Of a stretch of DNA of 33,703 bases, positions 1 to 20,022 are shown piece after piece. The notes under the pieces are model-generated. The model did no database searches. It saw only the letters and a list, made by a program, of their open reading frames with translations, and was not told where the DNA came from. A program made the position numbers and the translations under genes. Source of the DNA: an uncultured Clostridium sp. (lineage in GTDB: Bacteria; Bacillota; Clostridia; TANB77; CAG-508); assembly GCA_946498265.1 (NCBI GenBank), contig CAMMNR010000002.1, positions 1 through 33,703 of the forward strand, read 5' to 3'. The stretch's first letter is position 1. Each line of letters starts with the position of its first letter.

Positions 1-152
1 TAGCCGAGTAATTATTAAAATTTATATATAATACTTTTGTTTAATTAATGTAAAAGATTTTCAACAAAATTCCCTTTTTGGACGCGTCCCCAAAATGGTA
101 AAGAAGGTCCGTCCCCCTATCCCGAATTTTAGGGATTAAAGGAACGTCCCCT
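1..152 (-). repeat. Partial copy, cut by the window edge, of the composite GC-rich inverted-repeat element also found at 30002-30267. Arm = 70-152. Core-homologous segment = 1-41.
   Basis: 70-152 (ttccctttttggacgcgtccccaaaatggtaaagaaggtccgtccc...ggaacgtcccct) aligns with 30179-30267 with few differences. The reverse complement of 1-41 matches 30121-30152 (aacaaagtattatatataaatttaataattac) apart from two 1-nt homopolymer indels. The arm ends 3 nt from the TAG stop (156-158) of the 1845-aa gene. Confidence 0.8.
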
Positions 153-155
153 CCT

Positions 156-3100
156 CTATTTTAGAACATATTTTTTTATTATTATTACTCCAGATGCCAA
201 TATTCCTAATGAACATATTCCAATTATAAAATATGGTATATAGTAGTAATCTACACCTGTTGGTGGAATCACTGTAAAATGTTCTGCTTCATCATTATCT
301 GGCTCATATGTTGTACTATTTCCTGGTACATAATTTCCAGGTGTTGTTATTATTACAGAACCATATGTTTTTCCAACTTCTATAATTTCTGCAAAGTTTT
401 CATAGTCTATATCACGGTTTGTTGATAAATTTACATATGTTATTATTTCTGTTGTTGCTGATTGTCCTGCTGATATTTCAACTGCTGCTGTTCCGTTTTC
501 TGTAGGAGTTTCTGTTGGAGATTCTTCCGATGTTTGTCCCTCCTGTTTTACTGGATCTGTTATTGGAGTTATTACTACGTTATTTGTATCATTAAGTTGT
601 GTCTGTAATTCTTCTGTTAGATATCCATTTCTTATTAAATCTTCTTTGTCTTGCTTTTCTTGAATTTGACAATTTGAGTTGTTTTCTTCGCTGACTAGTA
701 AATCATTGTCTATATAATCAATTACTTGTTTTGCTGCTAGTTTTGCACTATATTCATCATCTATTCCTGTATCTCCATACCAATAATATTCTCTTGTACA
801 ATAATCACGTTCTGATAAGTTATTAGCTTTAAGTTCATATGTTATTATTGTTTCTACATCTTGTGAAATTTCGTCATTAATCTGTACTAATACCTGTTTT
901 ATATTCTGATCATTTTCTTCTTTTGGTATATATTGGATATATTTAGGTTGTCCTATTATATTTCCATTTTCGTCGATTTCAGCATCAATTAATGTAACAT
1001 CATTTGATAATTTCATTTCAACATGTTTTATTCTCTTTTTAAGTTCTAATATTTGTTTTGGCCTTTCGATTATACCGAAATCAACATAATTTATACTATA
1101 TCCTTGACTTATTGTTCCTTCGTCTGTTGGTCCAGTAATTTGTTCTTCTGTATCTTCTAAAGTTATTTCCATAAGACGTGTATTTGATTGCATTTCTAAA
1201 GTTTTAATTTGTTTACCAGAGTAATCTTCATTTATTGTTTGATTAAATTCTTGTTTTGTTTCATATGTTATATTTGATGTTTCATCATCTATTTTTTCTC
1301 TTATATCCCAATCATCTAGAGCATCTGTATATCTTGTGTCTTCGTCAACTTTATACCAATGTGTATTTGTTTGAACTCTAGTACTGTCATATACTGTTCC
1401 TTTATAATTTTGAACTGTTGTATATATTTTTTCTCCTTCAGGTGTTTCATAAAATGTGTTATTGCCCCATGTATATTTTATAATATAATCTCCTGGTATA
1501 TATCCTGAAATAGAATAATTTCCATTTTCATCTGTTATAGCTTCTTGATCTTGTCTTACATTATTCTGTTCTATTAAAGTTACTTTAACTTCTTGTACTT
1601 CTTCTTCTCCAGGTTCATAAATTCCTGAACCTATTCTTTGATTGTCTTCTAATTTTTCTTCCATCGCATTATCTATAAATACCATTCCTGATACTGTTCT
1701 CTCTTTATGATTATTTTCTATTTTGAATGATGGGGCTCTATCTGTATCATCTTCATATGTTGAGATATTTCCTGGTACTGCATTTCCTGGCTTTGAGTCT
1801 ACATCCACACCTGCTATCATTGTATTTCCATCTGCTTCAAATGTTGAATATGAATTTATTTCTGCTACGTTTTCTAGTAAGTTTTCATTACCTTCTGTTT
1901 CTGCTACTACTTCAATTGCCTGTCTAGTTAATTTAAATTGTACATATATATAAGTTTCTGATTGTGCATCAAGTTTTAGATTAGTTTCAATAGTCGCTTT
2001 ATGATAATTATTATTATAACCTTGAGTATTTACATTAAATGATTCATTTACTGTTCCATCATCATTCATTGCATTTCCAGCTATTACATATTCTAGCTCA
2101 TATCTGCTATCATAATAATCTACTATTGAATTTACTTGTGATGTAAGATTTGTTGATTGATTTTTTAAAGTTATTTTATAAGTTAAATAAGCTTTTAATT
2201 CCCTATCATCTTTATTGTTTTCATAAGTAAACGTATAATCTGATTTATATACAGGTCTTGTATATGTATATGCTAAATATTTCTGCCCAAATTTTACTCC
2301 TAAATCTTCTGCTGCATCTGATAGGTCTTCTGTTTCATCTATATCTCCGAATAAGTCATCTCCTTGTTCTTGTGCATAAGACATTTTAGTTTCGTAATTA
2401 TATGTATGTGCTTTTCCATTTATTTCTAATCTAACCTTTGCTAAATCCTTTACAAGTGCTAAATCTGGTTGATCTTTTATTAGAATACCAAAATTAACAT
2501 TCTGAATTTCATTATATAATGGATTATATCCACTTTTTAAGCTATATATTCCACTTGTTGAAGCTGTTACATTATATTTTCCACTATTATCATAAACATC
2601 TCCATTATATTTTATTATACTCTGGTAATTTGCACTATCATATTCTACATCTGACATATTATCAACAGTACTATATTTTTGGTTTAAACTATTTCTTGAT
2701 TCTTCTATATCTTCTGCCTTTGAGCCTCTATCTTCACCTATATTTGATGCTATAGCTTGATATTTCATACCATTATATTCAAATTCTACGATATATTCAT
2801 CTAAATATTGTGTTTCTATTTTTAAATTATCTCTATCACCCCAGAATTTGTATTCTCCTTCTTGTAGAGTATTTCCTTTACTGTCTTTTCCAGATTCTAT
2901 AGTATCTATAACAGTTCCATTTCTTTTTAATGTTACTTTTACACCATTTACTCCTTCACCATCTGTATACAATCCATCGCCCTGCCATTTTTTTCCTGCT
3001 TGCTCGTCTATAAATACTATACCTTGTATATCTACATATGTCCTTTCATTTTCTACAATTTGTTCTGCACTATCGTTTTTTACTTTTCCTCCTTCTACTT

Positions 3101-5693
3101 CATAACCTGTTCCTATTTCTTTTTCACTAACATCTGTATTACCAATACGAACATTAAAGTATGGGTTTTCGCTTCCTATTTCATATAAAGTATATGTTCC
3201 TGGTTCTGTGATACTAGAATCATCTAATGTTATTCTTATTAATCCATCTTCTTCAGTAACACCAGTTCCTACATACTCTCTTTTTGATCTCTGCCAATAA
3301 TTATAATATTTTTTCCATTCTTCCCATTCTTTATGATCTTTATTATATTGAGCTGTACGATGTCTTCTTTCACTTCTATTTTCTGTTGTGTAATAAATAT
3401 TTCCTTCTTCATCTACATGTGGTACTTGCACTGTATAATGATATGTATAATAGTAATCACTATATTGAGGTTCTTCCTTATATTTAGTATATTCCTTTTC
3501 TTTTGGATTCCAATTTTTTACACCAAATTCCATACCTGGTAATGGGGTATTTCCAGTATCTTTAATTACTTTTATTATTCCATCTCCAGTTGATGGCTGT
3601 TGTTTTCTAACATTTTCAAATATTACTTCCTGTTTTTCTTCCTCTCCTGATAATATAATCACTTTTTGCACACCTGCTGTTGACAATTCATATCCTGGTG
3701 GTGCTTCTGTTTCTTTTATATAATATGTACCTGGTTCTAGTCCACTGACTGTTATGGTACCAGTTGAACTTGTAGTTCCTGAAGCCACTACATCTGTACA
3801 TTCAACATCTGTACATACTATGAATTTCGCATCTGCTAAACCTATAGTTGTACCTGCTGCATATTTCTTAATAATTAGACCTGCTGAATCTGAAACATTA
3901 TATACAACTCTTACATTTGCTTGTTTGTCCCATTGTTTCCAATAACTTTCTTGCAGTGAAGCTGGCATATTTACAATTGTCTGACCTGTTTTTTCTCTCA
4001 TTCTTCGATAAATTCTATTTAGTTTTTGTTTAACACCTGCCTCGTCAGTCATATCAACTACGGCATAACCTTTTTCATCTATTAAATATTGTAATACATA
4101 ACTTAATAGATTATATTTATTCGTAAATTTCTTTGCATCTGATGCACCTGGATTACTAGAATCCATTATGGTATTATAATATCCACTTGCTTTCAAGTCA
4201 TTTACTATTGCTTTAACTTCTGTACTATCAGGTGCATAATCCACCGCTGCGATAACATATGCCAAAGTACTTATATAATCTTTTAACTGCTTATTTCCAG
4301 GAAGATTATCATAATATAAGTCACTTCCTAAATATGTTATACTTTTTATTGCATCCCATGTATAATTATATCCCATTTCTACATTAGGAATTGTACCTTC
4401 AATTCTATAACCTTGTGGTGTTTCTTTTTCTATTACTTTGTATGTACCACCTGCATTTAACCCTGTTATTTCTATAAGTCCATCAGCATCTGTAGTAAAT
4501 ACTGTTGCTTCACTTTCATTTTTTGTAAAAGAAATTTTATTTCCATCTTTCTTAATATATGAACCATCATTTGGAGCTCCCACCTTTTGGAAAATAAATT
4601 TTGCTCCCTCTAGTGGTTGGCTTGTATCTCTATCTAGTTTTTGTACTATTAATGTCTCTGTATCTATTGTAAAACTAAATTTTTGATGATGATATATTGT
4701 TTCTCTATATGGATAATATGCCATCAAAGGTTGTAAAGAATTTAGAGATTTAAAAATAATTAAATCTGCACATCTTGCTTGACTTTTGCTGTTTATATAA
4801 ATTGTAACAGATACTTTTCCTGTTATTCCTGACGATACTCTTAAGTAAAATAATTGATTTGGTTTTAAAGTAGAAACACCTTTTGCATTCCCATTAGCAT
4901 CATACACATTTCCTGATGTACTTTCTCCTCCACTCCATTTTACTTGTATCATTCTTTTATTACTACTATTATCTACTTCCATTCCACTAGGAAATTCAAA
5001 CTTAAATGGTCCAATTAATGTCATTGCAGTACCTTCTGAATCTGTTACTTGTCTCTTTTGTACTGTTTTACTGCCTGTAGAATTTACTATCCATTGTCCT
5101 ATTGAATCTGCATATTCTTCAGCTTCCCTTTGTAAAGTTTCATTAAATGGCTTATAATCTCCATTTTTCCATGGGTCTCTTATAGTTCCTATAAAACTAT
5201 CTACATTAAATATTCTTCCTAAAGTTTTGGTGCTTGTAGTTGGTTTTGCTGTTTTCCAATAATACATCTCTCTCCACATATTCATACAAAATGAATCACT
5301 TGCATTAAATCCATATTGTGTTCTTTTAGGATGTCCATTGTTAGATACAGTATATGCTAAAATTCCATTTTGCTTAGAAGGTAGTCCTTCTGTAATATGT
5401 ATAGTTGAACCGTCACTATTACTCGTATTATTATAATGACCAGTAGCAATATTTCCTTCTATATTTATTTTAGCTTGTATACGGTAGGTTCCTCCACCAT
5501 GAATACTTTGAGCATGGTTTAAACATACAATATTTCTATTTGCTGAAAAATCAGTTAAAGTTAGTGTAGATCCAACCCAGCCATATGCATCTGCACTAGT
5601 TTTATAACCATCTGCAAAAGATTTTGTATTCATTATTAAAATTGTTAATAAAAACATTATTATTGCTATTATTATTTTTTTAATTCTACTCAT
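156..5693 (-). CDS. Giant surface protein B2 (1845 aa): signal peptide, N-terminal Cys-containing thioester-domain-like module, three SpaA/Cna-B-type domains, SdrD-B-like and DUF11-like repeats, C-terminal IPPTG + TM helix + KK tail.
   Basis: Uninterrupted 5.5-kb ORF. SD aaggaggt lies 5 nt upstream of the ATG. N-terminus MSRIKKIIIAIIMFLLTILIMNTKSFA|DG looks like a Sec signal. E-box-like YYIKETEAPPGY (3690-3725) and YKVIEKETPQGY. SdrD-B-like VFIDNAMEEKLEDNQRIGSG...GNYSISGYIPGDYIIKY. Paralogous to 10867-14907. Confidence 0.88.
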   Translation of the reverse strand: MSRIKKIIIAIIMFLLTILIMNTKSFADGYKTSADAYGWVGSTLTLTDFSANRNIVCLNHAQSIHGGGTYRIQAKINIEGNIATGHYNNTSNSDGSTIHITEGLPSKQNGILAYTVSNNGHPKRTQYGFNASDSFCMNMWREMYYWKTAKPTTSTKTLGRIFNVDSFIGTIRDPWKNGDYKPFNETLQREAEEYADSIGQWIVNSTGSKTVQKRQVTDSEGTAMTLIGPFKFEFPSGMEVDNSSNKRMIQVKWSGGESTSGNVYDANGNAKGVSTLKPNQLFYLRVSSGITGKVSVTIYINSKSQARCADLIIFKSLNSLQPLMAYYPYRETIYHHQKFSFTIDTETLIVQKLDRDTSQPLEGAKFIFQKVGAPNDGSYIKKDGNKISFTKNESEATVFTTDADGLIEITGLNAGGTYKVIEKETPQGYRIEGTIPNVEMGYNYTWDAIKSITYLGSDLYYDNLPGNKQLKDYISTLAYVIAAVDYAPDSTEVKAIVNDLKASGYYNTIMDSSNPGASDAKKFTNKYNLLSYVLQYLIDEKGYAVVDMTDEAGVKQKLNRIYRRMREKTGQTIVNMPASLQESYWKQWDKQANVRVVYNVSDSAGLIIKKYAAGTTIGLADAKFIVCTDVECTDVVASGTTSSTGTITVSGLEPGTYYIKETEAPPGYELSTAGVQKVIILSGEEEKQEVIFENVRKQQPSTGDGIIKVIKDTGNTPLPGMEFGVKNWNPKEKEYTKYKEEPQYSDYYYTYHYTVQVPHVDEEGNIYYTTENRSERRHRTAQYNKDHKEWEEWKKYYNYWQRSKREYVGTGVTEEDGLIRITLDDSSITEPGTYTLYEIGSENPYFNVRIGNTDVSEKEIGTGYEVEGGKVKNDSAEQIVENERTYVDIQGIVFIDEQAGKKWQGDGLYTDGEGVNGVKVTLKRNGTVIDTIESGKDSKGNTLQEGEYKFWGDRDNLKIETQYLDEYIVEFEYNGMKYQAIASNIGEDRGSKAEDIEESRNSLNQKYSTVDNMSDVEYDSANYQSIIKYNGDVYDNSGKYNVTASTSGIYSLKSGYNPLYNEIQNVNFGILIKDQPDLALVKDLAKVRLEINGKAHTYNYETKMSYAQEQGDDLFGDIDETEDLSDAAEDLGVKFGQKYLAYTYTRPVYKSDYTFTYENNKDDRELKAYLTYKITLKNQSTNLTSQVNSIVDYYDSRYELEYVIAGNAMNDDGTVNESFNVNTQGYNNNYHKATIETNLKLDAQSETYIYVQFKLTRQAIEVVAETEGNENLLENVAEINSYSTFEADGNTMIAGVDVDSKPGNAVPGNISTYEDDTDRAPSFKIENNHKERTVSGMVFIDNAMEEKLEDNQRIGSGIYEPGEEEVQEVKVTLIEQNNVRQDQEAITDENGNYSISGYIPGDYIIKYTWGNNTFYETPEGEKIYTTVQNYKGTVYDSTRVQTNTHWYKVDEDTRYTDALDDWDIREKIDDETSNITYETKQEFNQTINEDYSGKQIKTLEMQSNTRLMEITLEDTEEQITGPTDEGTISQGYSINYVDFGIIERPKQILELKKRIKHVEMKLSNDVTLIDAEIDENGNIIGQPKYIQYIPKEENDQNIKQVLVQINDEISQDVETIITYELKANNLSERDYCTREYYWYGDTGIDDEYSAKLAAKQVIDYIDNDLLVSEENNSNCQIQEKQDKEDLIRNGYLTEELQTQLNDTNNVVITPITDPVKQEGQTSEESPTETPTENGTAAVEISAGQSATTEIITYVNLSTNRDIDYENFAEIIEVGKTYGSVIITTPGNYVPGNSTTYEPDNDEAEHFTVIPPTGVDYYYIPYFIIGICSLGILASGVIIIKKYVLK
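255..269 (-). other. Candidate sortase-type sorting motif IPPTG of B2, followed by a 25-aa hydrophobic stretch and KKYVLK.
   Basis: Reverse complement of acctgttggtggaat = att cca cca aca ggt (I P P T G). Tripartite layout of motif, TM helix and basic tail at the extreme C-terminus. Confidence 0.5.
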
Positions 5694-5707
5694 TTTTACC
5701 TCCTTCC

Positions 5708-8700
5708 TTATTTATTTTTCAAAACTTTTTTATAAATAAAATATATTCCAACTGCTACTATTAACAATGTCACAATTATTAGTAAAATATATGTGTATAC
5801 AGTACCTGTTCTAATACTTAAAATAACATCTGCCATTGCTTGATTATCATCTGTACCAGCATTTTCTGGTATACCTGTTTCATTATAGCTTTGCTCTATT
5901 TTAGCTGTATTACTAATTAAGCCTGTGCTATCTTCTGTCATATTTTTTGTTAAAACTAATGTTAAAACTTTTTCTTGCCCTGGTTGTATTAATTCATTAG
6001 AAATACTTGCATTTGATACTCTTCCATCTTCTAAATTCCAATTTGTATTTAAACTAGAATCAAAATTCAAACCTACTGGTATATCATCAACTATATTTGT
6101 TGCATATCCTGGTACTTCTCCTGTATTTTTAATAGTTAAATGATATTCGATTGTAACTAATGCATTATTTAATTTTTTAGCTTCAAGTTCTACTTTTGCC
6201 ATTGTTGTATTATTAAATTCATATGCTTGTATTCCTGATTGATATTTTACTGTTATTCTATTTACTGTTTTATGTATTTGTAAATTAAATATTTCTAATT
6301 CAACAAATCCTATATTTATATATCTAGTATCTTCTCCATCTACTATTAGAGTATCTGTTACTCCATATACTTTTTGTACTCCATTTACATTTATTTCCTT
6401 AGATATTACCTTTGAAGTTTTTGTATTTTCTACATTTTCTGCTTTATATGTAGTTAATTTATATTTATTAGTATTATAATCAACAACTACTAAATATCTT
6501 CCATTTTTTATTTCATTAAATTGATAAAATCCTAATTCATCTGTTTTAGTTATTATATTTTGTCCTTGAGAATCTTTTACTAGTTCTCCTGTATTTGCAT
6601 CTAATAACATTACATTTATATCTTTCATAATTTCTTCATTTGTGTCTTTTTCGCCGTCTTCGTCGCTGTCTAACCAAGCTGTACCACTAATTGCATATGT
6701 TCCTGTATCTTCTACAGGGTCACCTATATCGTCATCGTCACCTATTTCAATAGCATATATATGTGTAATTGGTCCTAATGTTTCTTCATAGCCACTTGTT
6801 GATACAGTTGCTTGATTCGTTATTTCTGTATAATTTTCTAAATCAAATCTTTGGACTTCTACTTCTATTTCTATAATCATAGTAGCATTTTGTTCTAATG
6901 AAAAACTTCTATCTATACTATTATTCAAATAAGTTTTCAAACCAGATTCATCAGTTGTTGCTTGTTCTACAACTTCTCCATTCATAGTTATTGACAATAG
7001 ATTTAGTTGCTCAGGAATATTATCTAAAAATTGTACATATGCATCTGCTTGTCCGTTATTTTTTATTTCTACTATATATTTGAATATGTCTCCTGCATAT
7101 ACTTTTTCATTTGTATTAGTAGATGTCATTGTAGATTCCATGTCTACAAGTGCCACTGCTGATTGATACAAATTTGAACGACACCATTCTTGAGTATCTG
7201 ATTTTGCAACTGCTGTAACCTTAAATGCACTATCATCTATATCCACTATTTCAGCTGTTAGTTCCAATACTTTCTTCTCATTTGCTTCTAGAGTTCCTAT
7301 ATTAGTTTCTTGATTTCCATCTAAGTAATCATATTGAATAACTTCTTCTCCATCAAATTTCTTTAATATTAATGTATGTATTTGTGTTCCTTCTGGTAAA
7401 TTTAGTCTTATCGTCACATTTTCCTGTGGCTCTGAAGTCATATTTTCTACAATTACATAATAATTTATATAAGCCCCTTCTATAAACTCAATTTCTCTAT
7501 CTGATACTTGTTTTACACTAAGTCTTAAATCCCCTTTTTCTACTGTATTACTAATAGTATTTGATTTTATTGAACTATCTTCATATATAAACTCGACTGT
7601 ATTACTAATTGTAGAACCTTCTGTATCTTGTTTTACTCTTACTTCATATTCTTTTGTAACTGATTCTCCTATAGCTAAAGTATTAATATCATATGTTAAC
7701 TCTGTATCTGCTTTTTCTTCAAAATATATGTCCCCAGTATACTCGTAACCTATTTCTCCTTCATAAGGAATTACATATACAGTATTTTCAGGAATTTTGA
7801 CTTTTGCTGAAATATTTTGTGCTTCTAAATTTCCTGTATTTTTAAATTCTACAATATATTTTATTGTTTCTCCTTCTTTAACTTTATCTCCGTCTTTTAA
7901 TTCATCTTGTCCTACTAGGGCTGTTATATTTGTTTCTATTTGTGCTTTTGGTTCTGTTTCTAATGCTACTACTGTTGATGTTGTTGTTTTTGGTTCCATA
8001 ACAGTTGGTACTTTATAACTTACTTCATATCCTTCATAAGATATTTGACTTGCATTTAAGGAGTCTGGCATTTGCATATAATATGTTGCTATAACCTGTT
8101 GTTCTTGTTCTAATCCATTCATTTGTATTAAATAATTTTTTACTTCAGTTGGATTTTCTATTTGTTCTTTCCATTCATTCTCAGGATTTGTAACATCTGT
8201 TGTTACTTCTTCTTTTTCACTATAATATATCTTTACTTGGTTTGTATCAACACCATTTAATGCAATACTTCCATTTATTCCTACTGGCAAAGTATTTTCT
8301 AATTCTTGATCTCCTATTTTTGCTTTTCCTAATGTAGGAAATCTTCCTAATACATTTACATTTTTTACAGCTGTTGTTTCATTGTTAATAAGACCTAATT
8401 CTACTTTGGTTTGTGTTCCTACCATCTCGTCTTTTATTATTGCTTTTTCTTCTTTTTCTTTTCCACTAGTTTTTATTTGGTATTCTTCTATATTATTTGT
8501 TGTAACAACATTTTCTAATGTACATATTTGTATATCTGTTGAAACATCTAAACTTCTATTTTCATTAGAAACATGCATTTTAACTGGTAATGTTTGGTTT
8601 CCTGCTTCTACTTTCACAGTAATATCTGCTATTATAGATATTATTGCATTTTGTAAATCTCTTTCTTTATGGTTTGTTTGTTCTCCTTCCATTTGAATTT

Positions 8701-10489: not shown

Positions 10490-10727
10490 AGTTTTCTCTC
10501 CCATTTAAACATATTTTATTCTATTTATATAATAGCTTCATTTACTGTTTTAATCAATATATAGAGTTTTCCAGTTTTTAAAATATTACATTAAAAACTT
10601 TGTATTATCTTACGGAAACTTGTAGATTTATCATGATTTTTCTTATTTTACTTTTTGTTTACATTTTAGTAACATTTCCTTTATTTTCAAACTTTACCAT
10701 GTTTTTTTGTTGATATATTTAAGCTTT

Positions 10728-10756
10728 TATATACGGAAAAGTAAAATTGTATACAA
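10728..10756 (-). promoter_or_regulatory. Candidate sigma-A-type promoter for the A2-B2 operon (TTGTAT-17 nt-TATATA on the minus strand).
   Basis: Minus strand reads ttgtat acaattttacttttccg tatata. The -10 lies ~240 nt upstream of the A2 ATG, mirroring the better promoter upstream of A1. AT-rich background makes false positives likely. Confidence 0.3.
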
Positions 10757-10816
10757 TCGTCGGAGCGTAGCGACTTTTATACAATAGGAAATGACGACTT
10801 TCCTATTGTATAACTA

Positions 10817-10853
10817 AAAGAGATACTATATAAAATTTATATAATATCTCTTT
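10817..10853 (-). terminator. Hairpin immediately downstream of B1: 16-bp stem with 1 mismatch and a 5-nt loop. Probable intrinsic terminator of the A1-B1 operon.
   Basis: aaagagatactatata / tatataatatctcttt flank loop aaatt, 14 nt after the B1 stop (10867). The stem is AT-rich and the U-tract is short. Two more hairpins follow at 10777-10813 and 10758-10774. Confidence 0.45.
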
Positions 10854-10866
10854 ATTTTACATTTTG

Positions 10867-13800
10867 TTATTTATTTAAAGTCTTTTTCTTTATTACAATT
10901 ATTCCTACAGCTGTGATAATTAATGCTCCTACAATTACTCCTGTTATAATAATAAAGTTTCTATTTTCACCTGTTGGTGGAGTTACTGTTACTGATTGTG
11001 CCATATCACTATCAAATTCGTCAGTTTCTCCTGGTATATAATTACCTGGTGTTGATGATATAATGTCACTTCCTCCTGTTTTATCTATTTTTACTATTTC
11101 AGTATCATTATTAAAATCAATTTCATCTGTTACTGCTAATACTTTAGAAACTATTAAATTTACACTTGCACTTTGTGTAGGTTGTAGAGCTTGGTCTTTA
11201 AGTTTTTCTGTATATAATATTATACTTTCATTTATAGTTTCACTATTAATTACTTCTGCTCCTAATAATTGTAATTGTTCAGCTTCCTCTGGGGTTTTGA
11301 TTTCCCATCCACTTTCTTGATTTCTAGATTCTTCAAATTCCCAATCTTTATCTAAATAATCAATAATTGCTGTTGGTGTGATTGTTACAACGGGATCTTT
11401 ATTTATTCCGTATTTATAGTATTCTTCACTAATATAATCTAATTCACTAATATTTTTTGCAATAATTTTATATTCTACTTCTAATGTTGAACCTTGCATT
11501 AATTCTTTGTCTATTTGTACTTGTACAAATCCATTTGGTTTCTGTACATTCAGAGCACTTGGTGGTCCAGCTGTAACATATGTAGAAGTTTGTTTAATAA
11601 TGTTTCCTTCATCATCTAATTCAGCTTCTGCAAGTACTTGTCCATTTGCTAATGTCAATTTTAGTCTACTTACTCTTTTAATTAATTCTACTTCTTGTCT
11701 AGGTCTTTCTACAATACCAAAGTCTACATTTCTGATTTCATAGATAAGTTCATCACCAGTTGCGTCAGTTACTGCCATATCAGTATTTTCTACTGTTATT
11801 CCCATTGTTGGTGTTGTTGAGTCCATTGTTGTTATTGTTGGTGTTGTTGAATTTGTTATTACCTTTAATTCATTATCTATTAACTCTCTTTGTGAGTAAT
11901 CATCTATTGCATCTGTATATCTCTTATCTACATTTGATTTATGCCATGCTTTATCTTGTATATTTTTATCATATCTGTCTTTTGCATAAATTGTTCCTTT
12001 ATAATTTTGTACTGTGTATGTTTCGTCTCCCCATGTATATGTTAATGTATAATCACCTGGTATAAATTCTGCTACTAAGAAGTCTCCATTTTCATCTGTA
12101 GTTGCATTATATACCTTTCCTGTTCCTGTATTTTCTGTTAATGTAATTTGTACTCCTGGTATTCCAAGTTCTCCATCCTCATATTCTCCACTTCCTAGTC
12201 TTTCTTCTCCTGTTTTTAGTTCGGCTTCAGTTCCATCTAAGAATACTTTACCTGTTAATCTTCTTGCATCCGCAACTTCTAATCTTAATGCTGGAGCTCT
12301 ATCAGTATCATCTTCAAATGTCTTTGTATCTTCTGGGTTTGCATTTCCTGGGTTAGAATCTACATCTATACCAGCATATTGATTTCCTTCTTTGTCAAAT
12401 ACTGAATATGAATTTATTTCTACAACATTTTCTAATAGATTATCTTTTCCTGCTTCTGTTCCAAGTTCATCTATTATACTTGCAACTGCTTCTCTACTTA
12501 GTTCGAATTGTACATATATATCATTTTGTTTTTGTGCTTCTATATTAGAATTTGTTTCTATTATTATTTTATTATATTTTGAACTACTATATCCTACATC
12601 TTCAGTATAATTTAAATTTCCACTAAGATTTCCATTATTATCTATGCCAGTTCCTGCTCCTACTATAGTATATCTCTTATCATAATAATCTACTATTGAA
12701 TTTACTTGTGATACAAGATTTGTAGATTGATTCTTTAATGTTATTTTATATGTCAATTTTACTTTTAACTCTCTACTTGTATCTTCGTCTGTGTATGTAT
12801 AATCTGATTTATATATCGCTCTTGAATATGTCATATTTGAATATTTTTCTCCAAATTTAACACCTACATTAAATATGCTACTCTCATCATTTTTATCATT
12901 TTGAGCTTCTTTTGATTTTGTTCCATAATTATATGTATGACCATATCCATTTATAGAAAGACTTACATTATCAAGGTCTTTTACCAAAGCTAGGTCTGGT
13001 TGTTCTCTTTCATATAGTCCTAAGTTTATATATTTAATTTCTTCTTGTCCTACTACATAGTGCTCTAAAATACTATAACCTGTTTGTTCTGTATCTGCAA
13101 TAATTGGAAATTGTCCTTGCCCATTTTCTGCAAATTCTAATACTTCAGCATTTTCGTCTTTAAATTTTACATTTATGAATATTGACTTATATTCTTCTTC
13201 ATTTTTGTCATATTCTAAATCATATATTTTATTTCCATTTGAATCTTTTGTTATACCAGTATTTCCGCCTGTACCTTCGACAATACTAAAGTTATTATTA
13301 AATGTTCTTCTTTCATCTTCATTTTCTGCTGCTTTTGAACCATTATCTTTATCTATATATGGTACAACATTTGTAAATGTTAGTCCATCATATTCAAACT
13401 CAATATAGTAATTTCCTAATTCTTCTACTAATACATCTACAAATAAATATGATCCTCTATCTGCTGTAACTGTTTCCATTATTGTATTTCCAGATTTATC
13501 TTTTAATCTTACTGGTATTCCATTAAGTAGTTTGTCTTCATAATCAAATTCTCCATCATTATATAAATCATTTCTTATTGATTGTTTTTCTGATTGCTTA
13601 TCTAACCAAACATATCCTGAAAGTTTTATATATTTTTGAATATTTGATACATTTAAGTTTGAAGTTTTATCAACTACTACTGTTCCTTCTGTTGCTTCTG
13701 TTTTTAGTTCATATCCATAATTAGGATTTTTTGTTTCATATGCTAAATATTTTCCTACTAATAGATTTTTAACTGTAAATTCTCCATTTGCATTTGTTAT

Positions 13801-14907
13801 AAATTCTGTTGCTTGACTTCTACTATCTACATATGTAATTACTCCATTTGAATTTTGTTTTACATATTTTCCAGTATCTTTATTTTGTATAATAAAACCT
13901 ACTCCAGAAAGTGTTACATTATCTCCACCTTCTACTATTTTTATTACTTTAAGATGTCCTAATAAAGATATATCATATTCAAAATCTTCATGTATTTTTT
14001 CTGATGATGTATATGGTTCTCTTGCCATTAAATTTTGATAACTTGCTCCACTTATACTTTCTAAGAACCATATTTTTACTGATTTAACATCATAATTACA
14101 GCTTCCTGATATTCTTGTTATTTTACTTACACTTTTGTCTATTGGTATTAATACATAAAAGTTTTTATCTGATTTTATTTGTTTAACACTTACTGTTTTA
14201 AATGTTGAACCTGAATACATTCCATATGCTACTCCACTTATTGCTTTTTCATTTTGATCATATACAGTTATACCACTTAGACTTCCTGGGAATGACCATT
14301 TAAATGGTCCAACTCTTGTATATTGTTTTCCATTTACTTCTACTGCTGTTGCTTTTACTTGACTTTTATTTGTATTATCTTCTAATGTTGAAGTATTAAT
14401 ACTATTTGCATATGATTGCGCTTGTGCTATTAGACTATTTCCTAAAGATGAACCTGCATTTCCTGATACAAATGCTTGTGAAATTCCATGTCTTGTACCA
14501 ACACTTCTTACCCAAGTAGGTGCATATGTCCATATTGCATTTGCCACTGGCCCTTGGTCTTTGTCTATTCCTGCTCCTTCTGTTCCATTATTTTGTGAAA
14601 GTATATATGCAAAAGTTGCATTTATTTTACTATTATTTACTCTAGTATTATTAGCCGTATTTACTGAATTTAATCCTTTAATTGTTACAATTGAATTTAC
14701 TCTATATGTGACATCATACCCAGGTAATCTTTGCCCATGTTGAACACAGAATAAATTTGTATCTGTTATATAATCATAATATGATTTGCTTAATACATCT
14801 CCTACATTGTAACCACTATATGATGCTGCTTCTGTTGTATTTGCTATACATAGTATTGCAATAATTAATCCTAATATTAAAATGATTTTATTTTTTAATG
14901 TTTTCAT
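10867..14907 (-). CDS. Giant surface protein B1 (~1346 aa): signal peptide, Cys-containing thioester-domain-like N-terminal module, SpaA/Cna-B domain, SdrD-B-like and DUF11-like repeats, C-terminal TPPTG + TM helix + KKK tail.
   Basis: ORF runs 10867-14940. Preferred start is ATG at 14907 (MKTLKNKIILILGL...), preceded by aaaggaggt with a 9-nt spacer. Signal peptide ...ANTTEA|AS. Cna-B/SpaA-like LKVIKIVEGGDNVTLSGVGFIIQNKDTGKY...NGEFTVKNLLVGKYLAYETKNPNYGY. SdrD-B-like LSGYVWLDKQ...GIPVRLKDKSGN...DRGSYLF. Confidence 0.88.
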   Translation of the reverse strand: MKTLKNKIILILGLIIAILCIANTTEAASYSGYNVGDVLSKSYYDYITDTNLFCVQHGQRLPGYDVTYRVNSIVTIKGLNSVNTANNTRVNNSKINATFAYILSQNNGTEGAGIDKDQGPVANAIWTYAPTWVRSVGTRHGISQAFVSGNAGSSLGNSLIAQAQSYANSINTSTLEDNTNKSQVKATAVEVNGKQYTRVGPFKWSFPGSLSGITVYDQNEKAISGVAYGMYSGSTFKTVSVKQIKSDKNFYVLIPIDKSVSKITRISGSCNYDVKSVKIWFLESISGASYQNLMAREPYTSSEKIHEDFEYDISLLGHLKVIKIVEGGDNVTLSGVGFIIQNKDTGKYVKQNSNGVITYVDSRSQATEFITNANGEFTVKNLLVGKYLAYETKNPNYGYELKTEATEGTVVVDKTSNLNVSNIQKYIKLSGYVWLDKQSEKQSIRNDLYNDGEFDYEDKLLNGIPVRLKDKSGNTIMETVTADRGSYLFVDVLVEELGNYYIEFEYDGLTFTNVVPYIDKDNGSKAAENEDERRTFNNNFSIVEGTGGNTGITKDSNGNKIYDLEYDKNEEEYKSIFINVKFKDENAEVLEFAENGQGQFPIIADTEQTGYSILEHYVVGQEEIKYINLGLYEREQPDLALVKDLDNVSLSINGYGHTYNYGTKSKEAQNDKNDESSIFNVGVKFGEKYSNMTYSRAIYKSDYTYTDEDTSRELKVKLTYKITLKNQSTNLVSQVNSIVDYYDKRYTIVGAGTGIDNNGNLSGNLNYTEDVGYSSSKYNKIIIETNSNIEAQKQNDIYVQFELSREAVASIIDELGTEAGKDNLLENVVEINSYSVFDKEGNQYAGIDVDSNPGNANPEDTKTFEDDTDRAPALRLEVADARRLTGKVFLDGTEAELKTGEERLGSGEYEDGELGIPGVQITLTENTGTGKVYNATTDENGDFLVAEFIPGDYTLTYTWGDETYTVQNYKGTIYAKDRYDKNIQDKAWHKSNVDKRYTDAIDDYSQRELIDNELKVITNSTTPTITTMDSTTPTMGITVENTDMAVTDATGDELIYEIRNVDFGIVERPRQEVELIKRVSRLKLTLANGQVLAEAELDDEGNIIKQTSTYVTAGPPSALNVQKPNGFVQVQIDKELMQGSTLEVEYKIIAKNISELDYISEEYYKYGINKDPVVTITPTAIIDYLDKDWEFEESRNQESGWEIKTPEEAEQLQLLGAEVINSETINESIILYTEKLKDQALQPTQSASVNLIVSKVLAVTDEIDFNNDTEIVKIDKTGGSDIISSTPGNYIPGETDEFDSDMAQSVTVTPPTGENRNFIIITGVIVGALIITAVGIIVIKKKTLNK
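10969..10983 (-). other. Candidate sorting motif TPPTG of B1, followed by a TM helix and KKKTLNK.
   Basis: Reverse complement of acctgttggtggagt = act cca cca aca ggt (T P P T G). Confidence 0.5.
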
Positions 14908-14929
14908 AAAATTTTTACCTCCTTTCTTC

Positions 14930-17900
14930 CTATATTTCATCGATTTTTATATCATTCTTTTTTCTAACTAATACAATTGCTACTATTACTAAGATTGCAA
15001 CTACTATAATAGTTATTCCTACATATACAATTCCACCTGTTCTAATACTTAAGATAACATCTGCATAGTCCATATCATTTTCACCTTGCACTTTATTTGC
15101 TGGTGTTGAATTTATATCTCCTAATCCTAATTCATTATATGCTTCTGCTATTTCTGCTGTATTATTTACAAGTCCTGTATTATTTTCGTTCATTGCTTTT
15201 GTAAGTGTTAATGTTAATGTTTTTGTTTCTCCTGCTGCTATTTTATCATTTGCTATGCTTGTATTATATAATACTCCATTTTGTTGATACCAATCCTTGT
15301 TTAATTCTGAACTAAATTGAAGACTATTTGGCATATAGTCTGCAATTTTTCTTGCATAACCATCTATTTCTCCTACATTTGTAACATTGATTTTATATTC
15401 TATTATTACTGTTGTTCCTGCTAGTTGTTTTGCATCTATTTCAACTTTTGCTAGTTTTTCATTGTTAAATTCTTTTACTGTTGTTCCTGCTGAATTTTGT
15501 AATATGATTTTACTTACATATTTTTCTAATTTTAAATCAAATGTTTTTAGTTCTATTAAACCTATATTAATATCTGAAATATTATTATTGTCTATTGTTA
15601 TTATATCTGTACCTGTTACTTGTTCAGTATTTCCTGCTATATTCAATTCTGTTAACATTGCATCAGAGTTTTTACTCTCATCTGCACCCTCTACTTTGTA
15701 TTTAGTAACTGTATATTGTGTTGCATTATAATCAAATATCACAACATATTGTCCATTTGATATATTATTTAATACATACATTCCGTTATCATCAGTTGTC
15801 ACCTCTAGTACATTTCCTGATTCGTCTTTTACTAAATTATTAGTTTGTGTATTTAATAATCTTACTTTTACATTATTTAATGTAGATTCATTATTATCTA
15901 CAATACCATTAGTATTTTCATCATACCATGCTAGACCACTTATCATTCTTGTACCATCTGTTATATCTCCATTGTTATTACTATTATTATTATCATCTTC
16001 ATCTTGGTTATTATCTTCATTAGATGTTGTCTCTATTATATGGCTTATACTATCTGTTTCTGCAATTACTTCTCCGAACATGCTTGCTGATGCTTTATTC
16101 ACTATTGTTTCTGCTTCATTTCTTCCATCTGATTCATCTACTACAGTTTCGATTTTTACTTCACATTGACCTTTTTCCATAATACTTAATATAATTTCTA
16201 CATTATTGTCTTCTATTCCTTCTACAGCTTCTCCATCTACAGTTATGTTATTTATTGTTAGTTGTTCTGGTATTGTGTCTGTAAAACTAATTCCTTCTGC
16301 TCTACTATCTGAATTATTTTTAAGTATTATTGTATATTCTATTATGTCTCCTGCTTTAACATATGAACTTTCTGTATTAGATGTCATTGTCATTGATATA
16401 TCATAATTGTTTATATTGTCTTCCCATACATTAGATTTATATTCTTTAGAATTATCTTTAGCTACTACTGAAAATTCTGCTTTTTCATTTTCAGTTTTGC
16501 TTACTAACATACTATAACCTAAGACTTTTGTTTCTCCTGCATTTAAAGTTCCTACATTTACTTCATTTGCATATTGTAAGTCCTCTGCTGTCATATTGTT
16601 TCCTATAGAATCTTCTTTTTGTATTTCATTTTGTTGGCTTACAGGTTGATTATTATCTTCTACATTTATTTCTTCATTTAAAACTTGTTGTGATTCCATT
16701 CCTGTATATAATGTTAAGTTTTCTACTTGCAAATTATCTGATTTATTTGTTTGTATTTTAACATTTTCTTGTGCTTCATTTGATATATTTTCAATTATTG
16801 CATAATACTTAACTGCTCCATTTGCATATATATTTATATTTCTATCAGTAACTTTTTTTACACTTACTCTTAAATTTCCACTTTCTGTTGTGGTTTGTAT
16901 TTCATTAGATTCATTTATTGCTTCTCCATATTTTGTCTCTATCATATTTGTAAGTGTTGTATTTTCAGCTGTATCTGAATTTACTCTTACTTCATATTCT
17001 ACAATTGCTTTTTCTCCAACTGCTATTTTTTCTATAGTTTTTTCGAATTTTTCTGCCTCTATTTCTTTATAATATGATGAACCTGTGTATTCATAATTTG
17101 GCTCTGGTTCTACTAATGTTGTTCCTTGAGGTATTTGACCTGTTACTATAGCATTTTGTACTTCTTCTGAACCAGTATTAGAAATTTCTACATGATATTT
17201 TATAACTTCTCCATTTTTTACTTTCATATCTGAAGTTAAGTTTTGATTTCCAACTGTTGCACTTAACACTGTTTCTATTTTTGGTCCTACACCTGTATCC
17301 ATTTCTATATTTGTTGATTTTATTGTATTTGAAATATTTGTTACAGCATTTGTATAACTTACTTCATAACCTTCTGATGCTTTTTGATTATATTCAAGGT
17401 TTTCTGGTACTTCTATGTTATATGTACCTATAACACTTTGTCCAGATTCCAAATTATCATATTGTATTAAGTATTTTTTACTATTTTGTGTTGCATTTTG
17501 TGTCCATACATTTTCTGCATTTTGTAAGTCTTCTGTTGCATTCTCATTTTCTGAATAATAAATTGTTGCATTTTCCATATTTATTGTAGTTGCAAGTTTT
17601 GCTCCTAAATTATTTGATTCACTATCAGTAGGAAATGTTCCTAATACTTTCATATTACTTATTGGTTCTTGATTGTTATTTATTATCTCTAATTGCACTT
17701 CTAATCTTTTTGCATCTTGTCCTTTATCCATTGATATTGTTTGTTTTTCTTCTTGTCCTACTGTTTCTATTCCTAAGTCTTTTATACTATTTATTGCTGT
17801 TACATCTGTAGGTGCTACTATTTGGATATCTTTTGAAGTTGTTCCTACTTCTTCTCTATTTGTATATTCCATTGTTATTTGTTTTGTTGAAGTTGCTGAT

Positions 17901-19804
17901 TTTTTGTTTACTGTTATATCAGCATTTATTATTATTGTTGCTCCTTCTATTGATTGTTCCTTATATTGTGTTTGTTTTCCTGCTAATGTTATTGTTAAAA
18001 TTCTTCCATTTACTACATAATTTTGTATTGTTAATTCATTTTCATAAACTAAATCAATACTATTTATTTTTACCCCTTCTACTTCCTCTGGTAAAACTAT
18101 ATTTATCATTGGATTCTCAAATAAATTATATTCTTCACTATTTGTACTTAAAATAGCTCTCATTTCAACATTATTTTCAACTACTGTAGATAAAGTATCT
18201 TTATTAACTTCTAATTTTGCAACTGTTTTTGTTTCATTTAAGGCTATTTCTGATTTAGCTTCTGTTTGTATACCTAGTGAATATTTTTCAGTATCTGTTA
18301 CATTCATGTTATAACTTGCTACTGCTGTTGTTTGTATTTTATTAACACTTCTAAGTACATCCACATCATTTTGTTTTATTGTTTTTTGATTATTAAAATC
18401 TATTTTTCCTTCCTTTATAGGTGTTGATGTTCTTATTTCTATATTTTTTGCTTCTACATTTGAGTATTCGATATTAATGTTTCCGTTTTCATCAGGTGTT
18501 GAATTTACATCTGCTCTTCCAATCATTTGTCCATCTTGATTTATTATCTCTATAACTCCGTTTTGTCCAAAAATTTCATCAAATCTTTGTTTACTAAATG
18601 ATGTTCTTGTATCTATGATATTTGCATCAAGTAAAGTATTTTCATTTGCTATAAAGTTATTTTGCTCTTTTATACTTATATATTCTGCTGTATTAGCTAA
18701 ATTTACTACTAATTTAGTAGTAGAGTTATAACTTCTATCTATACCAGAATATAATTTTCCTTTAAACATTTGTTGTTCACTATTTTGTGTTTCTATTGAT
18801 ATTGTTGTATCTTTTTCTTCATTATTTAGAGTTATTTTTGTATCATTTGCTTGAATTTCTTTATCATTATATAATGTCACATTTTCTTGTGATGTTATTT
18901 CTATATTTTCTAAATTTACATCTTTTTCATATATATATGTTAATATAATATTTTCATTTCCAGATTTTTTCCATACTATTTTATTATCTTGTGTTAATTC
19001 ATTTGAAAGTTGAAATTCTATGTATCCATCTTCATTTTTATATTCATATGATGTCATATTGTTTAAATTAACAACTTGTACAACTTCTGGTTGTTGTTCA
19101 TTTATTTCTGGAATATTAATTTTTGAATTTATGTTTTTTATTGGATAATTATTTTCTTTTAATCCTAAATTTACTGAAAATTGGATTATTCTTTTTTCTT
19201 CTCCATTTATTTTCATTACTTTGTTTGTAATTATATTTATGCTATTTTCAACATTTTCTGGTGTATTTGCTTCAATTAGTTTTAAATTTACTTCTCTACT
19301 TGAATTTATAGTTATATCCCTTTCAGTACTATCTTTATAATCACCAGTCAATATTATTTCGCTACTCATGTCTAATAAACCTGCATCTATTTGATCTTCC
19401 AGTACAGGTTTTATTTTAACATCAATTTCAGCATTTGTTCCTGCATTTAGTTGATTTAAATATATTGTATTTCCTTCTATTCTGTTTACATATTGATTTT
19501 CTGTACCAACAATTGTAAAATTAGTATTTGCGATTTCTACTTGCCCATTAAAGTATCCATCTTTTTTTACATTTACATTTAGGTACAATGTCTGTTCTTG
19601 TTCTTCTGACGTAATTTCTAAGGAACTTGTGTTTTTTCCTTCTTTATCTTTAAAGTATGTATTAAATTCTACATTAGCATGATTTGTAGATAAAATATCT
19701 GCAGCATAACTTACTAGACTTGAACCAACAAAAATAAAATTGGCAATTGTCATTGTTAGTATTAACGCTATAATAATGCTAATTTTTAGAAATTTCTTTT
19801 TCAT
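14930..19804 (-). CDS. Giant surface protein A1 (~1624 aa): signal peptide, DUF11/Ig-like repeat array, acidic N/D-rich linker, SdrD-B-like domain, C-terminal SIRTG + TM helix + basic tail.
   Basis: ORF runs 14930-19828. Preferred start is ATG at 19804 (MKKKFLKISIII...), preceded by aaaggagga. DUF11-like GEVIKYHVEISNTGSEEVQNAIVTGQIPQGT, GDIIEYTIILKNNSDSRAEGISFTDTIPEQL, TTVIIEYKINVTNVGEIDGYARKIADYMPNSL. SdrD-B-like ISGLAWYDENTNGIVDNNES...GMYVLNNISNGQYVVIFDY. Confidence 0.88.
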   Translation of the reverse strand: MKKKFLKISIIIALILTMTIANFIFVGSSLVSYAADILSTNHANVEFNTYFKDKEGKNTSSLEITSEEQEQTLYLNVNVKKDGYFNGQVEIANTNFTIVGTENQYVNRIEGNTIYLNQLNAGTNAEIDVKIKPVLEDQIDAGLLDMSSEIILTGDYKDSTERDITINSSREVNLKLIEANTPENVENSINIITNKVMKINGEEKRIIQFSVNLGLKENNYPIKNINSKINIPEINEQQPEVVQVVNLNNMTSYEYKNEDGYIEFQLSNELTQDNKIVWKKSGNENIILTYIYEKDVNLENIEITSQENVTLYNDKEIQANDTKITLNNEEKDTTISIETQNSEQQMFKGKLYSGIDRSYNSTTKLVVNLANTAEYISIKEQNNFIANENTLLDANIIDTRTSFSKQRFDEIFGQNGVIEIINQDGQMIGRADVNSTPDENGNINIEYSNVEAKNIEIRTSTPIKEGKIDFNNQKTIKQNDVDVLRSVNKIQTTAVASYNMNVTDTEKYSLGIQTEAKSEIALNETKTVAKLEVNKDTLSTVVENNVEMRAILSTNSEEYNLFENPMINIVLPEEVEGVKINSIDLVYENELTIQNYVVNGRILTITLAGKQTQYKEQSIEGATIIINADITVNKKSATSTKQITMEYTNREEVGTTSKDIQIVAPTDVTAINSIKDLGIETVGQEEKQTISMDKGQDAKRLEVQLEIINNNQEPISNMKVLGTFPTDSESNNLGAKLATTINMENATIYYSENENATEDLQNAENVWTQNATQNSKKYLIQYDNLESGQSVIGTYNIEVPENLEYNQKASEGYEVSYTNAVTNISNTIKSTNIEMDTGVGPKIETVLSATVGNQNLTSDMKVKNGEVIKYHVEISNTGSEEVQNAIVTGQIPQGTTLVEPEPNYEYTGSSYYKEIEAEKFEKTIEKIAVGEKAIVEYEVRVNSDTAENTTLTNMIETKYGEAINESNEIQTTTESGNLRVSVKKVTDRNINIYANGAVKYYAIIENISNEAQENVKIQTNKSDNLQVENLTLYTGMESQQVLNEEINVEDNNQPVSQQNEIQKEDSIGNNMTAEDLQYANEVNVGTLNAGETKVLGYSMLVSKTENEKAEFSVVAKDNSKEYKSNVWEDNINNYDISMTMTSNTESSYVKAGDIIEYTIILKNNSDSRAEGISFTDTIPEQLTINNITVDGEAVEGIEDNNVEIILSIMEKGQCEVKIETVVDESDGRNEAETIVNKASASMFGEVIAETDSISHIIETTSNEDNNQDEDDNNNSNNNGDITDGTRMISGLAWYDENTNGIVDNNESTLNNVKVRLLNTQTNNLVKDESGNVLEVTTDDNGMYVLNNISNGQYVVIFDYNATQYTVTKYKVEGADESKNSDAMLTELNIAGNTEQVTGTDIITIDNNNISDINIGLIELKTFDLKLEKYVSKIILQNSAGTTVKEFNNEKLAKVEIDAKQLAGTTVIIEYKINVTNVGEIDGYARKIADYMPNSLQFSSELNKDWYQQNGVLYNTSIANDKIAAGETKTLTLTLTKAMNENNTGLVNNTAEIAEAYNELGLGDINSTPANKVQGENDMDYADVILSIRTGGIVYVGITIIVVAILVIVAIVLVRKKNDIKIDEI
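15035..15049 (-). other. Candidate sorting motif SIRTG of A1, followed by a TM helix and RKKNDIKIDEI.
   Basis: Same nucleotide 15-mer as in A2. The surrounding block acctgttctaatacttaaRataacatctgc is 33/34 identical between A1 and A2. Confidence 0.45.
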
Positions 19805-20022
19805 TTTTATTCCTCCTTTAAAAAACACTTAAAATTAATATTTCCTTTATATAATATAAATTTTTTGTAAAAAAATCAATTATTAATATTAATGTATTTT
19901 TTTATCTTTTTCTAACGTTTTACGGCTTTACACTTTGCGTGTTTGAGTGTTTTATATTACATTTTCATGACATTTTTGTAAAAATTTGTAATATTATTTA
20001 TTTGCATAAAGCACCTATTTAT

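Follow-up and report, generated by a model that had tools for sequence, protein, structure and literature searches.

Paired genes for a giant rod protein and a predicted thioester adhesin, tandemly duplicated at a fixed chromosomal site in gut Clostridia

Why does a gut bacterium devote more than half of a chromosomal region to two copies of one pair of giant surface proteins, and what do the partners do together? This question is raised by contig CAMMNR010000002.1 of an uncultured Clostridium sp. (assembly GCA_946498265.1), of which positions 1 to 33,703 of the forward strand were analysed; this whole 33.7 kb stretch is called the window below. Four giant minus-strand genes, A1, B1, A2 and B2 in the order of reading, take up 57% of it. 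The explanation that we prefer, with a probability of roughly 0.6, is that they form two paralogous operons, each encoding a rod protein (A) and a thioester-tipped adhesin (B), which would build a two-component surface fibre or coat; the physical coupling of A and B is what we infer. The four genes are as follows.

14930..19804, minus strand: gene A1, 1,624 amino acids (aa), recognised by its open reading frame (ORF), Shine-Dalgarno sequence and Pfam families PF01345 and PF17210
10867..14907, minus strand: gene B1, 1,346 aa, recognised by its ORF, Shine-Dalgarno sequence and Pfam families PF17802, PF17210 and PF13620
5708..10489, minus strand: gene A2, 1,593 aa, paralogue of A1 with PF01345 (four stretches) and PF17210
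156..5693, minus strand: gene B2, 1,845 aa, paralogue of B1 with two SpaA domains and an IPPTG signal

At the approximately 27% GC of the window a chance origin of ORFs with 1,346–1,845 codons is excluded. The initial annotation, made from the letters of the DNA, had placed these four ORFs and their share of the window correctly, and its description of two paralogous, collinear A-B operons, with 14–22 nt between the genes of a pair and an own Shine-Dalgarno sequence for each, also holds. The likely starts are at 19804 (A1), 14907 (B1), 10489 (A2) and 5693 (B2), preceded by AAAGGAGG for A1 and B1, by GGGAGAG for A2 and by AGGAGGT for B2; the stop codon of A is separated from the start of B by 22 nt in the first pair and 14 nt in the second. 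The longest possible B1 ORF, with its start at 14940, extends into the end of A1 (14908-14940); the start at 14907 has a good ribosome-binding site and a normal signal peptide. Longer ORFs can likewise be drawn for A1 (from 19828 instead of 19804) and A2 (from 10504 instead of 10489).

The full-length alignment of A1 with A2 has 1,644 columns and 35% identity (E = 0); for B1 and B2 the identity is 37% in 1,038 columns (E = 3e-162) and 24% in the N-terminal ~440 residues. A and B have in common only a weak C-terminal module (E = 1e-7). Judging from these alignments, the duplication of the A-B cassette is real but old, since the paralogues are only ~35% identical, and the similar divergence of the A and B paralogues is as expected for copying as one unit. 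The two pairs are separated by the following element.

10777..10854, minus strand: two stem-loops of 17 and 15 bp, directly after the B1 stop codon

These B1-A2 intergenic hairpins reach −40.5 kcal/mol against −15.6 in shuffled sequences (z = −8.0) and are probably a terminator between two operons; because they follow the stop codon of B1, A1-B1 and A2-B2 are probably separate transcription units. Of the hairpins and the promoter-like leader claimed for this spacer in the initial annotation, the former are therefore substantiated and the latter is not: a promoter scan gave no enrichment (82 sites against 84 expected from shuffles) and is uninformative in AT-rich DNA.

The pairing was followed in related genomes. 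One genome per species was scanned and 79 loci were returned, all of them from metagenome-assembled genomes of uncultured gut Clostridia (human, chicken, rabbit, mouse), including Clostridium sp. CAG:343. Wherever the upstream flank is present, it consists of mreB-C-D, PBP2, minC and usually two small genes, followed by A-B; in related loci spoIIE stands just after the array, that is, the array lies between minC and spoIIE, at the same site in 79 species. Given this spoIIE the lineage probably sporulates. Every A gene with room downstream has B directly after it (79/79), A immediately precedes 98 of the 99 B genes whose upstream side is covered, and the order A then B is never reversed among these loci. 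Across the species that carry the pair, protein identity goes down to 40–55%, and the first-position A and B proteins are ~50% identical. The first pair is followed by a second A-B pair in 28 loci, by a single very long ORF in 23, and in a few the beginning of a third unit was seen. Thus, the A-B pairing that had been noticed earlier from its maintenance through duplication is real, and it has been kept through speciation as well.

In some related loci, such as L001 (14075-18888 and 18903-23076), L011, L046, L052, L061 and L067, an A or B gene, mostly of the second pair, is broken up into two or three ORFs. Pseudogene formation, phase variation or faulty assembly could account for this; no obvious homopolymer run was seen at either of the two break points read in L001.

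Another arrangement was registered in 26 species, where the A-B pair is one ORF of 2,562–3,187 codons, at two different array positions.

L013, 14251-22815: single A-B ORF
L018, 14237-23647: single A-B ORF
L076, 1163-9481: single A-B ORF
L077, 6872-15232: single A-B ORF
22 further loci: single A-B ORFs

Each long ORF contains a whole A, including the S-x-x-TG motif and the anchor helix, then a Lys-rich loop of about 10 residues, a second hydrophobic stretch and B. Sorting motif, anchor helix and basic loop, the last with a similar pattern throughout, are kept in 26 of 26, and the second helix is visible in most junctions; it has the look of a signal peptide, and an AxA-like cleavage site is reached in most junctions read. 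The B part of six long ORFs, which were read further, has a shortened thioester domain with both Cys and Gln kept, a much shorter N-lobe and an apparently missing helical subdomain. A true domain fusion of the Rosetta-stone type, with the anchor of A lost, was considered and ruled out, as the A anchor and the B signal peptide are both present. The pattern is consistent with a predicted topology in which A lies outside, the anchor helix leads in, the loop is cytoplasmic, the second helix leads out and B again lies outside. The anchor helix of A, the short basic loop and the signal peptide of B would then make a membrane hairpin, and cleavage by sortase and signal peptidase would turn the single translation product into the two mature proteins that separate genes also yield. 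Selection thus maintains the two processing signals and holds A and B together, and the long ORFs are the strongest evidence for selection on co-production and co-delivery of A and B, which yet would end as separate mature proteins.

What kind of protein B is can be judged from its domains. In B1 a signal peptide is followed by a class II-type thioester domain, a SpaA/CnaB isopeptide domain, two modules each composed of SdrD_B and a CLIPPER-like domain, and a TPPTG signal. SpaA (CnaB-type) and SdrD_B score above the Pfam cut-offs, as do DUF11/CLIPPER and SdrD_B in A, in agreement with what had been guessed for both proteins; a CarboxypepD_reg-like domain (PF13620) is also found in B. The elements discussed here are these.

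13948..14826, minus strand: thioester domain of B1, residues 28-320, assigned by fold match and kept Cys and Gln
14746-14748, minus strand: codon of B1 Cys54, within the thioester domain
14035-14037, minus strand: codon of B1 Gln291, within the thioester domain
13612..13923, minus strand: SpaA/CnaB isopeptide domain of B1 (PF17802, E = 7e-13) with the E-box AYETKNPNYGY
4644-5621, minus strand: divergent thioester domain of B2, assigned by paralogy to B1

The thioester-like character of the B N-terminus, suspected from the beginning, is borne out at the level of fold. An AlphaFold2 model of B1 residues 1-340 (predicted local distance difference test, pLDDT, 84) matched in Foldseek the structures 6fwy (E = 3.6e-7) and 6fwv (E = 1.1e-5), both with probability 1.0, while the next matches had E > 4e-3; these two structures are the class II thioester domains of Enterococcus faecium TIE86 and of the Bacillus anthracis TIE protein. 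The order of secondary structures in the model (N-lobe helices, sandwich, long hairpin 262-314) agrees with the published class II topology. The bond-forming residues of thioester domains, Cys in [YFL]C-phi-zeta and Gln in phi-Q-zeta-phi-phi, are their sole universally conserved residues (PMC6194298), and the B1 motifs F-C54-V-Q (FCVQ) and Y-Q291-N-L-M (YQNLM) fit this consensus. Cys54 and Gln291 are each present in 93 of 94 diverse relatives, whereas their neighbours H57, Q59, K116 and N123 vary, which is the pattern reported for thioester domains in the same work. B2, included in the alignment, keeps both residues. The helper motif TQxx-phi-W is degenerate in B1 (VANAIW, with Gln gone). When 1.84 billion representatives were searched exhaustively with HMMER, only 184 clusters matched the B1-type thioester domain; nearly all full-length members of this subfamily have 1,200–1,970 residues with the domain at the N-terminus.

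Behind the thioester domain the assignment is supported by sequence as well. The SpaA domain of B has an invariant K323/E391/N422 triad and E-box, matches the pilin isopeptide domains 9lty, 4oq1 and 3phs in the PDB, and in B2 is found by Pfam as two stretches (E = 9.5e-32). By fold and motifs, B belongs to the TIE adhesins as a giant member with a divergent class II-type thioester domain, the bond itself being a prediction. The rate of evolution differs along the protein, with 22–30% identity in the first 300 residues and 42–56% in residues 601-1100, and for the B2 thioester domain a database of 5.8 billion proteins yielded one match, an IS66-truncated B2 orthologue from a 95%-identical strain. 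That the thioester end evolves fastest fits a ligand-facing or immune-facing tip, and a different specificity of the second pair.

The contig of the latter strain (L083, positions 1-5326) matches the window at 5414-8937 with 95.5% identity; its B2 orthologue runs for ~93 codons and is followed by an IS66-family transposase (PF03050), which represents either disruption by an insertion sequence or a chimeric contig, and its A2 is intact. An exact-sequence look-up of B2, meant to reach past the left end of the window, gave no record. B2 also carries at residues 735-808 (3270-3491, minus strand) a Tyr/Trp/Lys/Glu-rich stretch, YTKYKEEPQYSDYYYTYHY...WEEWKKYYNYWQRSKREY, which is absent from B1 and seems to be placed inside an isopeptide-type domain.

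Protein A is an all-beta rod of ~14 domains, including three or four CLIPPER/DUF11 domains (PF01345) and one SdrD_B. In A1 the signal peptide is followed by ~8 beta-sandwich domains without assignment, CLIPPER/DUF11, SdrD_B, a terminal CLIPPER-like domain and the SIRTG signal. PF01345 scores 60.4 bits in A2 and 45.6 bits in A1 against a cut-off of 24.6, and TIGR01451 gives 48.6 and 54.4 bits on the A proteins, where the cut-off is 24. The name CLIPPER was recently given to DUF11, which is CnaA-like and has been shown to contain an intramolecular isopeptide bond (PMC12617251); K1428, D1489 and N1548 are invariant in 134 A sequences, as expected for an isopeptide triad. The module at the base of the rod, weakly homologous to the base module of B (E = 1e-7), is located as follows.

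15140..15934, minus strand: base module of A1, made of SdrD_B (15632-15934) and the last CLIPPER/DUF11 domain (15140-15406)

Residues 1-850 of A have no Pfam family match, and the AlphaFold2 model of A1 residues 1-860 (pLDDT 87) is all-beta, with ~8 beta-sandwiches in a string. An adhesive head was looked for on A and none was recognised, the fold matches being only generic multi-Ig/beta-sandwich ones (integrin legs, MG domains of alpha-2-macroglobulin) with template modelling (TM) scores < 0.2; the weak bMG10 match was not taken as homology to alpha-2-macroglobulin. The sequence NNYPIKN, considered as a pilin motif, was also rejected: NNYP[IM]K[NE] is confined to orthologues of A1, and its Lys is < 93% conserved among the 134 A-type sequences.

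All four proteins terminate in a pentapeptide whose last letters are TG, about 22 hydrophobic residues and a basic tail, and this pattern is kept in more than 230 relatives.

14933..15049, minus strand: A1 sorting signal, S-I-R-T-G followed by a hydrophobic helix of 23 residues and the tail RKKN
5711-5818, minus strand: A2 sorting signal, SIRTG
10870..10983, minus strand: B1 sorting signal, T-P-P-T-G followed by a hydrophobic helix and the tail KKK
159-269, minus strand: B2 sorting signal, IPPTG

Across related loci the A-type motif is [S/G][I/V/L]xTG, SIRTG being the commonest (47/112), with the Thr (T1589) kept in 134 of 134 and the Gly (G1590) in 133 of 134 A-type sequences. The B-type motif is [T/V/I]PxTG, in which P1310, T1312 and G1313 of B1 are invariant; a census of 119 B tails counted TPATG 26 times, TPNTG 24, TPPTG 17 and TPSTG 12. 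Tags for exosortase, archaeosortase and rhombosortase were sought with NCBIfam on the last 52–62 residues, where no match was obtained. The most fitting reading of these tails is that of two distinct kinds of sortase signal, both non-canonical.

Taken together, this allows us to suggest how the preferred two-component fibre or coat would be made. A and B would be exported side by side via Sec in a ratio of about 1:1, each would be cut at its TG motif by one or more sortases encoded elsewhere, and both would then be fixed to the cell wall. The Cys-Gln thioester of B would form and covalently capture an amine on a target, which may be the host, mucus, a food particle or another cell. A would be the obligatory partner of B, acting as shaft, spacer or co-adhesin, and the divergent second pair would provide a second specificity.

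A number of observations weigh against this explanation. For the tip, the TM-scores of the matches to 6fwy and 6fwv are low (0.30–0.34); sequence models of Pfam (E ≤ 1) and NCBIfam (E ≤ 0.1) missed the thioester domain, and neither a thioester-only profile (E ≤ 10) nor a full-length profile found a thioester-domain match among PDB sequences. For the anchors, TIGR01167 (LPXTG_anchor), the nearest NCBIfam model, gives A1, A2 and B1 only 12.6–14.6 bits (A1 14.6), below the cut-off of 15.9; the B2 tail is not listed for this model, its sole match being EF0750_LPXTG with 13.5 bits against a cut-off of 47, and the SIRTG motif of A is without the usual proline. A sortase gene is present neither in the 33.7 kb window nor within 10 kb of the 79 related loci. 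As to the pairing, B served to retrieve the loci, and a solitary A gene at another place in those genomes would have escaped notice; A and B, each with own export and anchor signals, could act independently.

For the window the initial annotation had already remarked the absence of a class C sortase, a signal peptidase and a regulator; in the window and in the 79 related loci alike, no sortase of any kind, signal peptidase or regulator is linked. The TLxTC signature occurs in no genuine ORF of the window or of 83 loci: four regular-expression matches in the loci are in ORFs of 125–257 codons judged spurious, and the match in the window is in a frame interrupted by stops. The flanks of the array encode MinC, two small proteins, SpoIIE and housekeeping genes.

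How the partners relate to each other may be imagined differently. In S. pyogenes the thioester protein Cpa is the tip pilin of the pilus, the VPPTG/TPPTG-type motif of B resembles the motif of Cpa, and differing sorting motifs route subunits of pilus systems to different sortases. By analogy with Cpa, A and B might be joined covalently into a minimal heterodimeric pilus, a fibre longer than 100 nm with the thioester at its tip, if one sorting signal were resolved onto a lysine of the partner and not onto peptidoglycan, or if the thioester of B reacted with A. Two different, separately conserved sorting motifs, the strict order and adjacency of the genes, and a polyprotein form that would bring both products to the same membrane spot and favour a cross-link in cis are all in line with this. 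We nevertheless consider it unlikely: none of the 79 loci has a linked sortase of class C or pilus type, no lysine pilin motif is conserved, the family-wide lysines are placed as expected for intramolecular isopeptide bonds, and in size the subunits exceed every known pilin several times over. A still broader proposal sees in A and B the halves of a single obligate machine: a fibre of more than 100 nm, joined by sortase or thioester, whose making would require both precursors to leave by the same translocon, with the single ORFs as true surface polyproteins; we put it forward only tentatively, and would expect it to be wrong more often than right.

The opposite view, that A and B are two independent adhesins which are merely co-transcribed, explains adjacency by shared regulation and duplication, and the fused genes by neutral losses of stop codons, which would be tolerated owing to a chance compatibility of membrane topology. 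Each protein does have a complete signal peptide and its own anchor, a gap of 14–22 nt makes accidental fusion easy, and the apparent IS66 interruption of B2 beside an intact A2, as well as the split genes of second pairs, show that partner loss may be possible. Such independence is hard to reconcile with the pairing counts (79/79 and 98/99) at 40–55% protein identity, with an order that is never reversed and with paralogues diverged to a similar degree (35% and 37%), as for unit duplication; the junction loop pattern kept in 26 fused genes also speaks for long-term maintenance and not for repeated accidents. We regard this view as quite improbable. Much more improbable again is a role in the core envelope, with A/B fibres forming a constitutive layer or sheath for shape or protection and not an adhesin. 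It would suit the constant site from minC to spoIIE in 79 species near mreBCD-PBP2, the ~50% identity of first-position A and B and the stabilisation by isopeptide domains. It does not suit the thioester domains, known only as reactive binding modules (PMC6194298, PMC8092201), the absence of SLH, CWB2 or other S-layer anchoring domains in Pfam and NCBIfam searches, the fastest evolution at the B tip (22–30% against 42–56%), which fits a ligand or immune interface, or the second pair, which is variable and partly lost in at least one strain. The fibre or coat made of a rod and a thioester-tipped adhesin remains the explanation that we favour.

Nearly all large genes of the window are on the minus strand, and in the direction of its reading they follow as pcrA, an M23 peptidase gene, mecA (on the plus strand), a DUF4321 gene, radC, mreB, mreC, mreD, a gene for a PBP2-type transpeptidase, minC, two small divergent genes and then A1, B1, A2 and B2. 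Because of this gene content (pcrA, mreBCD, PBP2-type, minC and others) the window is chromosomal and comes from a walled Clostridia-type bacterium. Scans of the window for Rfam families and tRNAs gave no match. The small genes between minC and A1 are divergent to the array and overlap each other.

20155-20667, plus strand: small gene 1, 170 aa, Asn/Ser-rich, between minC and A1
20660-21031, plus strand: small gene 2, 123 aa, Asn/Ser-rich with a C-terminal hydrophobic stretch, overlapping small gene 1

Neither has a Pfam or NCBIfam family match, and one or both are found at the same position in almost every related locus that covers it. The window also contains a GC-rich repeat of ~85 bp with GGGGACG...CC motifs in three copies of ~89% identity, at 67-152 (minus strand), 30008-30091 (plus strand) and 30176-30261 (minus strand); in addition, 8-37 matches 30124-30152, and the copy at the left end is cut by the edge of the window. 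One copy is placed just after the B2 stop codon, and the other two make an inverted pair ~250 bp across, with the M23 peptidase gene on one side and two small genes on the other. The repeat folds strongly (z = −4.3) and looks like a miniature inverted-repeat transposable element or a repetitive extragenic palindromic element.

An array that occupies a fixed site in ~80 species of gut Clostridia and takes up 57% of 33.7 kb is probably a major part of what this clade shows to its host and environment. Thioester adhesins bind their targets covalently, and a thioester subfamily invisible to current sequence models means that surveys of covalent adhesins in microbiomes probably undercount them. The A-B pairing together with the polyprotein form gives a concrete candidate for coupled biogenesis of two wall-anchored proteins, and the motifs S-I-x-T-G and T-P-x-T-G would, if confirmed, widen the known range of sortase substrates. 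Should A and B indeed be one machine, two wall-anchored proteins would be obtained from one translation product by means of a sortase site and an internal signal peptide, a biogenesis of surface proteins that to our knowledge has not been described, and the resulting structure would define an abundant uncultured lineage of the human gut.

It remains to place the locus among known systems. The nearest to B are TIE proteins with a class II thioester domain (BaTIE/BasC of Bacillus anthracis, EfmTIE86 of Enterococcus faecium, SaTIE; PMC6194298), with which it shares the N-terminal thioester fold, including beta-sandwich insert and long beta-hairpin, the stalk of CnaB/SpaA isopeptide domains and the C-terminal xPxTG signal. 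B differs from them in being 2–3 times longer (1,346–1,845 aa against about 560–800 aa), in the VANAIW sequence that lost the Gln of TQxx-phi-W, in a thioester domain missed by Pfam, NCBIfam and PDB sequence searches, in the SdrD_B and CLIPPER-like modules of its stalk, and in the gene A that precedes it, no such partner being reported for known TIE proteins. A, in turn, resembles fibrillar adhesins with CLIPPER domains (DUF11, PF01345; PMC12617251; PDB 9IFR) in its three or four PF01345 domains, its Lys/Asp/Asn residues and its rod-like all-beta form, and is distinguished by the lack of a recognisable adhesive head, the end S-I-x-T-G without proline and the obligate coupling to a thioester-domain protein.

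The resemblance to a pilus or MSCRAMM locus, which the initial annotation had pointed out, did not survive closer comparison. Sortase-assembled pili such as Cpa-FctA-FctB of S. pyogenes also have clustered genes, isopeptide domains with an E-box, a thioester-tipped component and differing sorting motifs; however, in 79 species no pilus sortase occurs in or near the A-B cluster, a conserved pilin-motif lysine (WxxxVxVYPK-like) is found neither in the A family nor in the B thioester domain, and instead of a small polymerising backbone pilin there are two giant subunits, some pairs of which are polyproteins. With MSCRAMMs (Sdr/Clf) the locus shares SdrD B-like domains (PF17210) and an LPXTG-like anchor, but Pfam and NCBIfam give no N2N3 ligand-binding region of the dock-lock-latch type, Ser-Asp repeats are absent, and SdrD_B in A and B is one element of a larger repeated module. 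Thus, being without a linked sortase and without a pilin motif, the A-B locus is not a classical sortase pilus operon, and it is not an MSCRAMM either. A link to the “conserved pilin” of TANB77 (PMC11680825) was also considered; that locus encodes a Tad-type pilus and is unrelated. In a limited literature search, neither an obligate pair of TIE protein and CLIPPER rod nor a polyprotein in which an internal sorting signal is followed by a signal peptide was found to have been described. The earlier opinion that the system is not a described one has, therefore, to be divided: the parts, a TIE adhesin and a CLIPPER rod, are of known kinds, while their obligate pairing and the polyprotein form are new.

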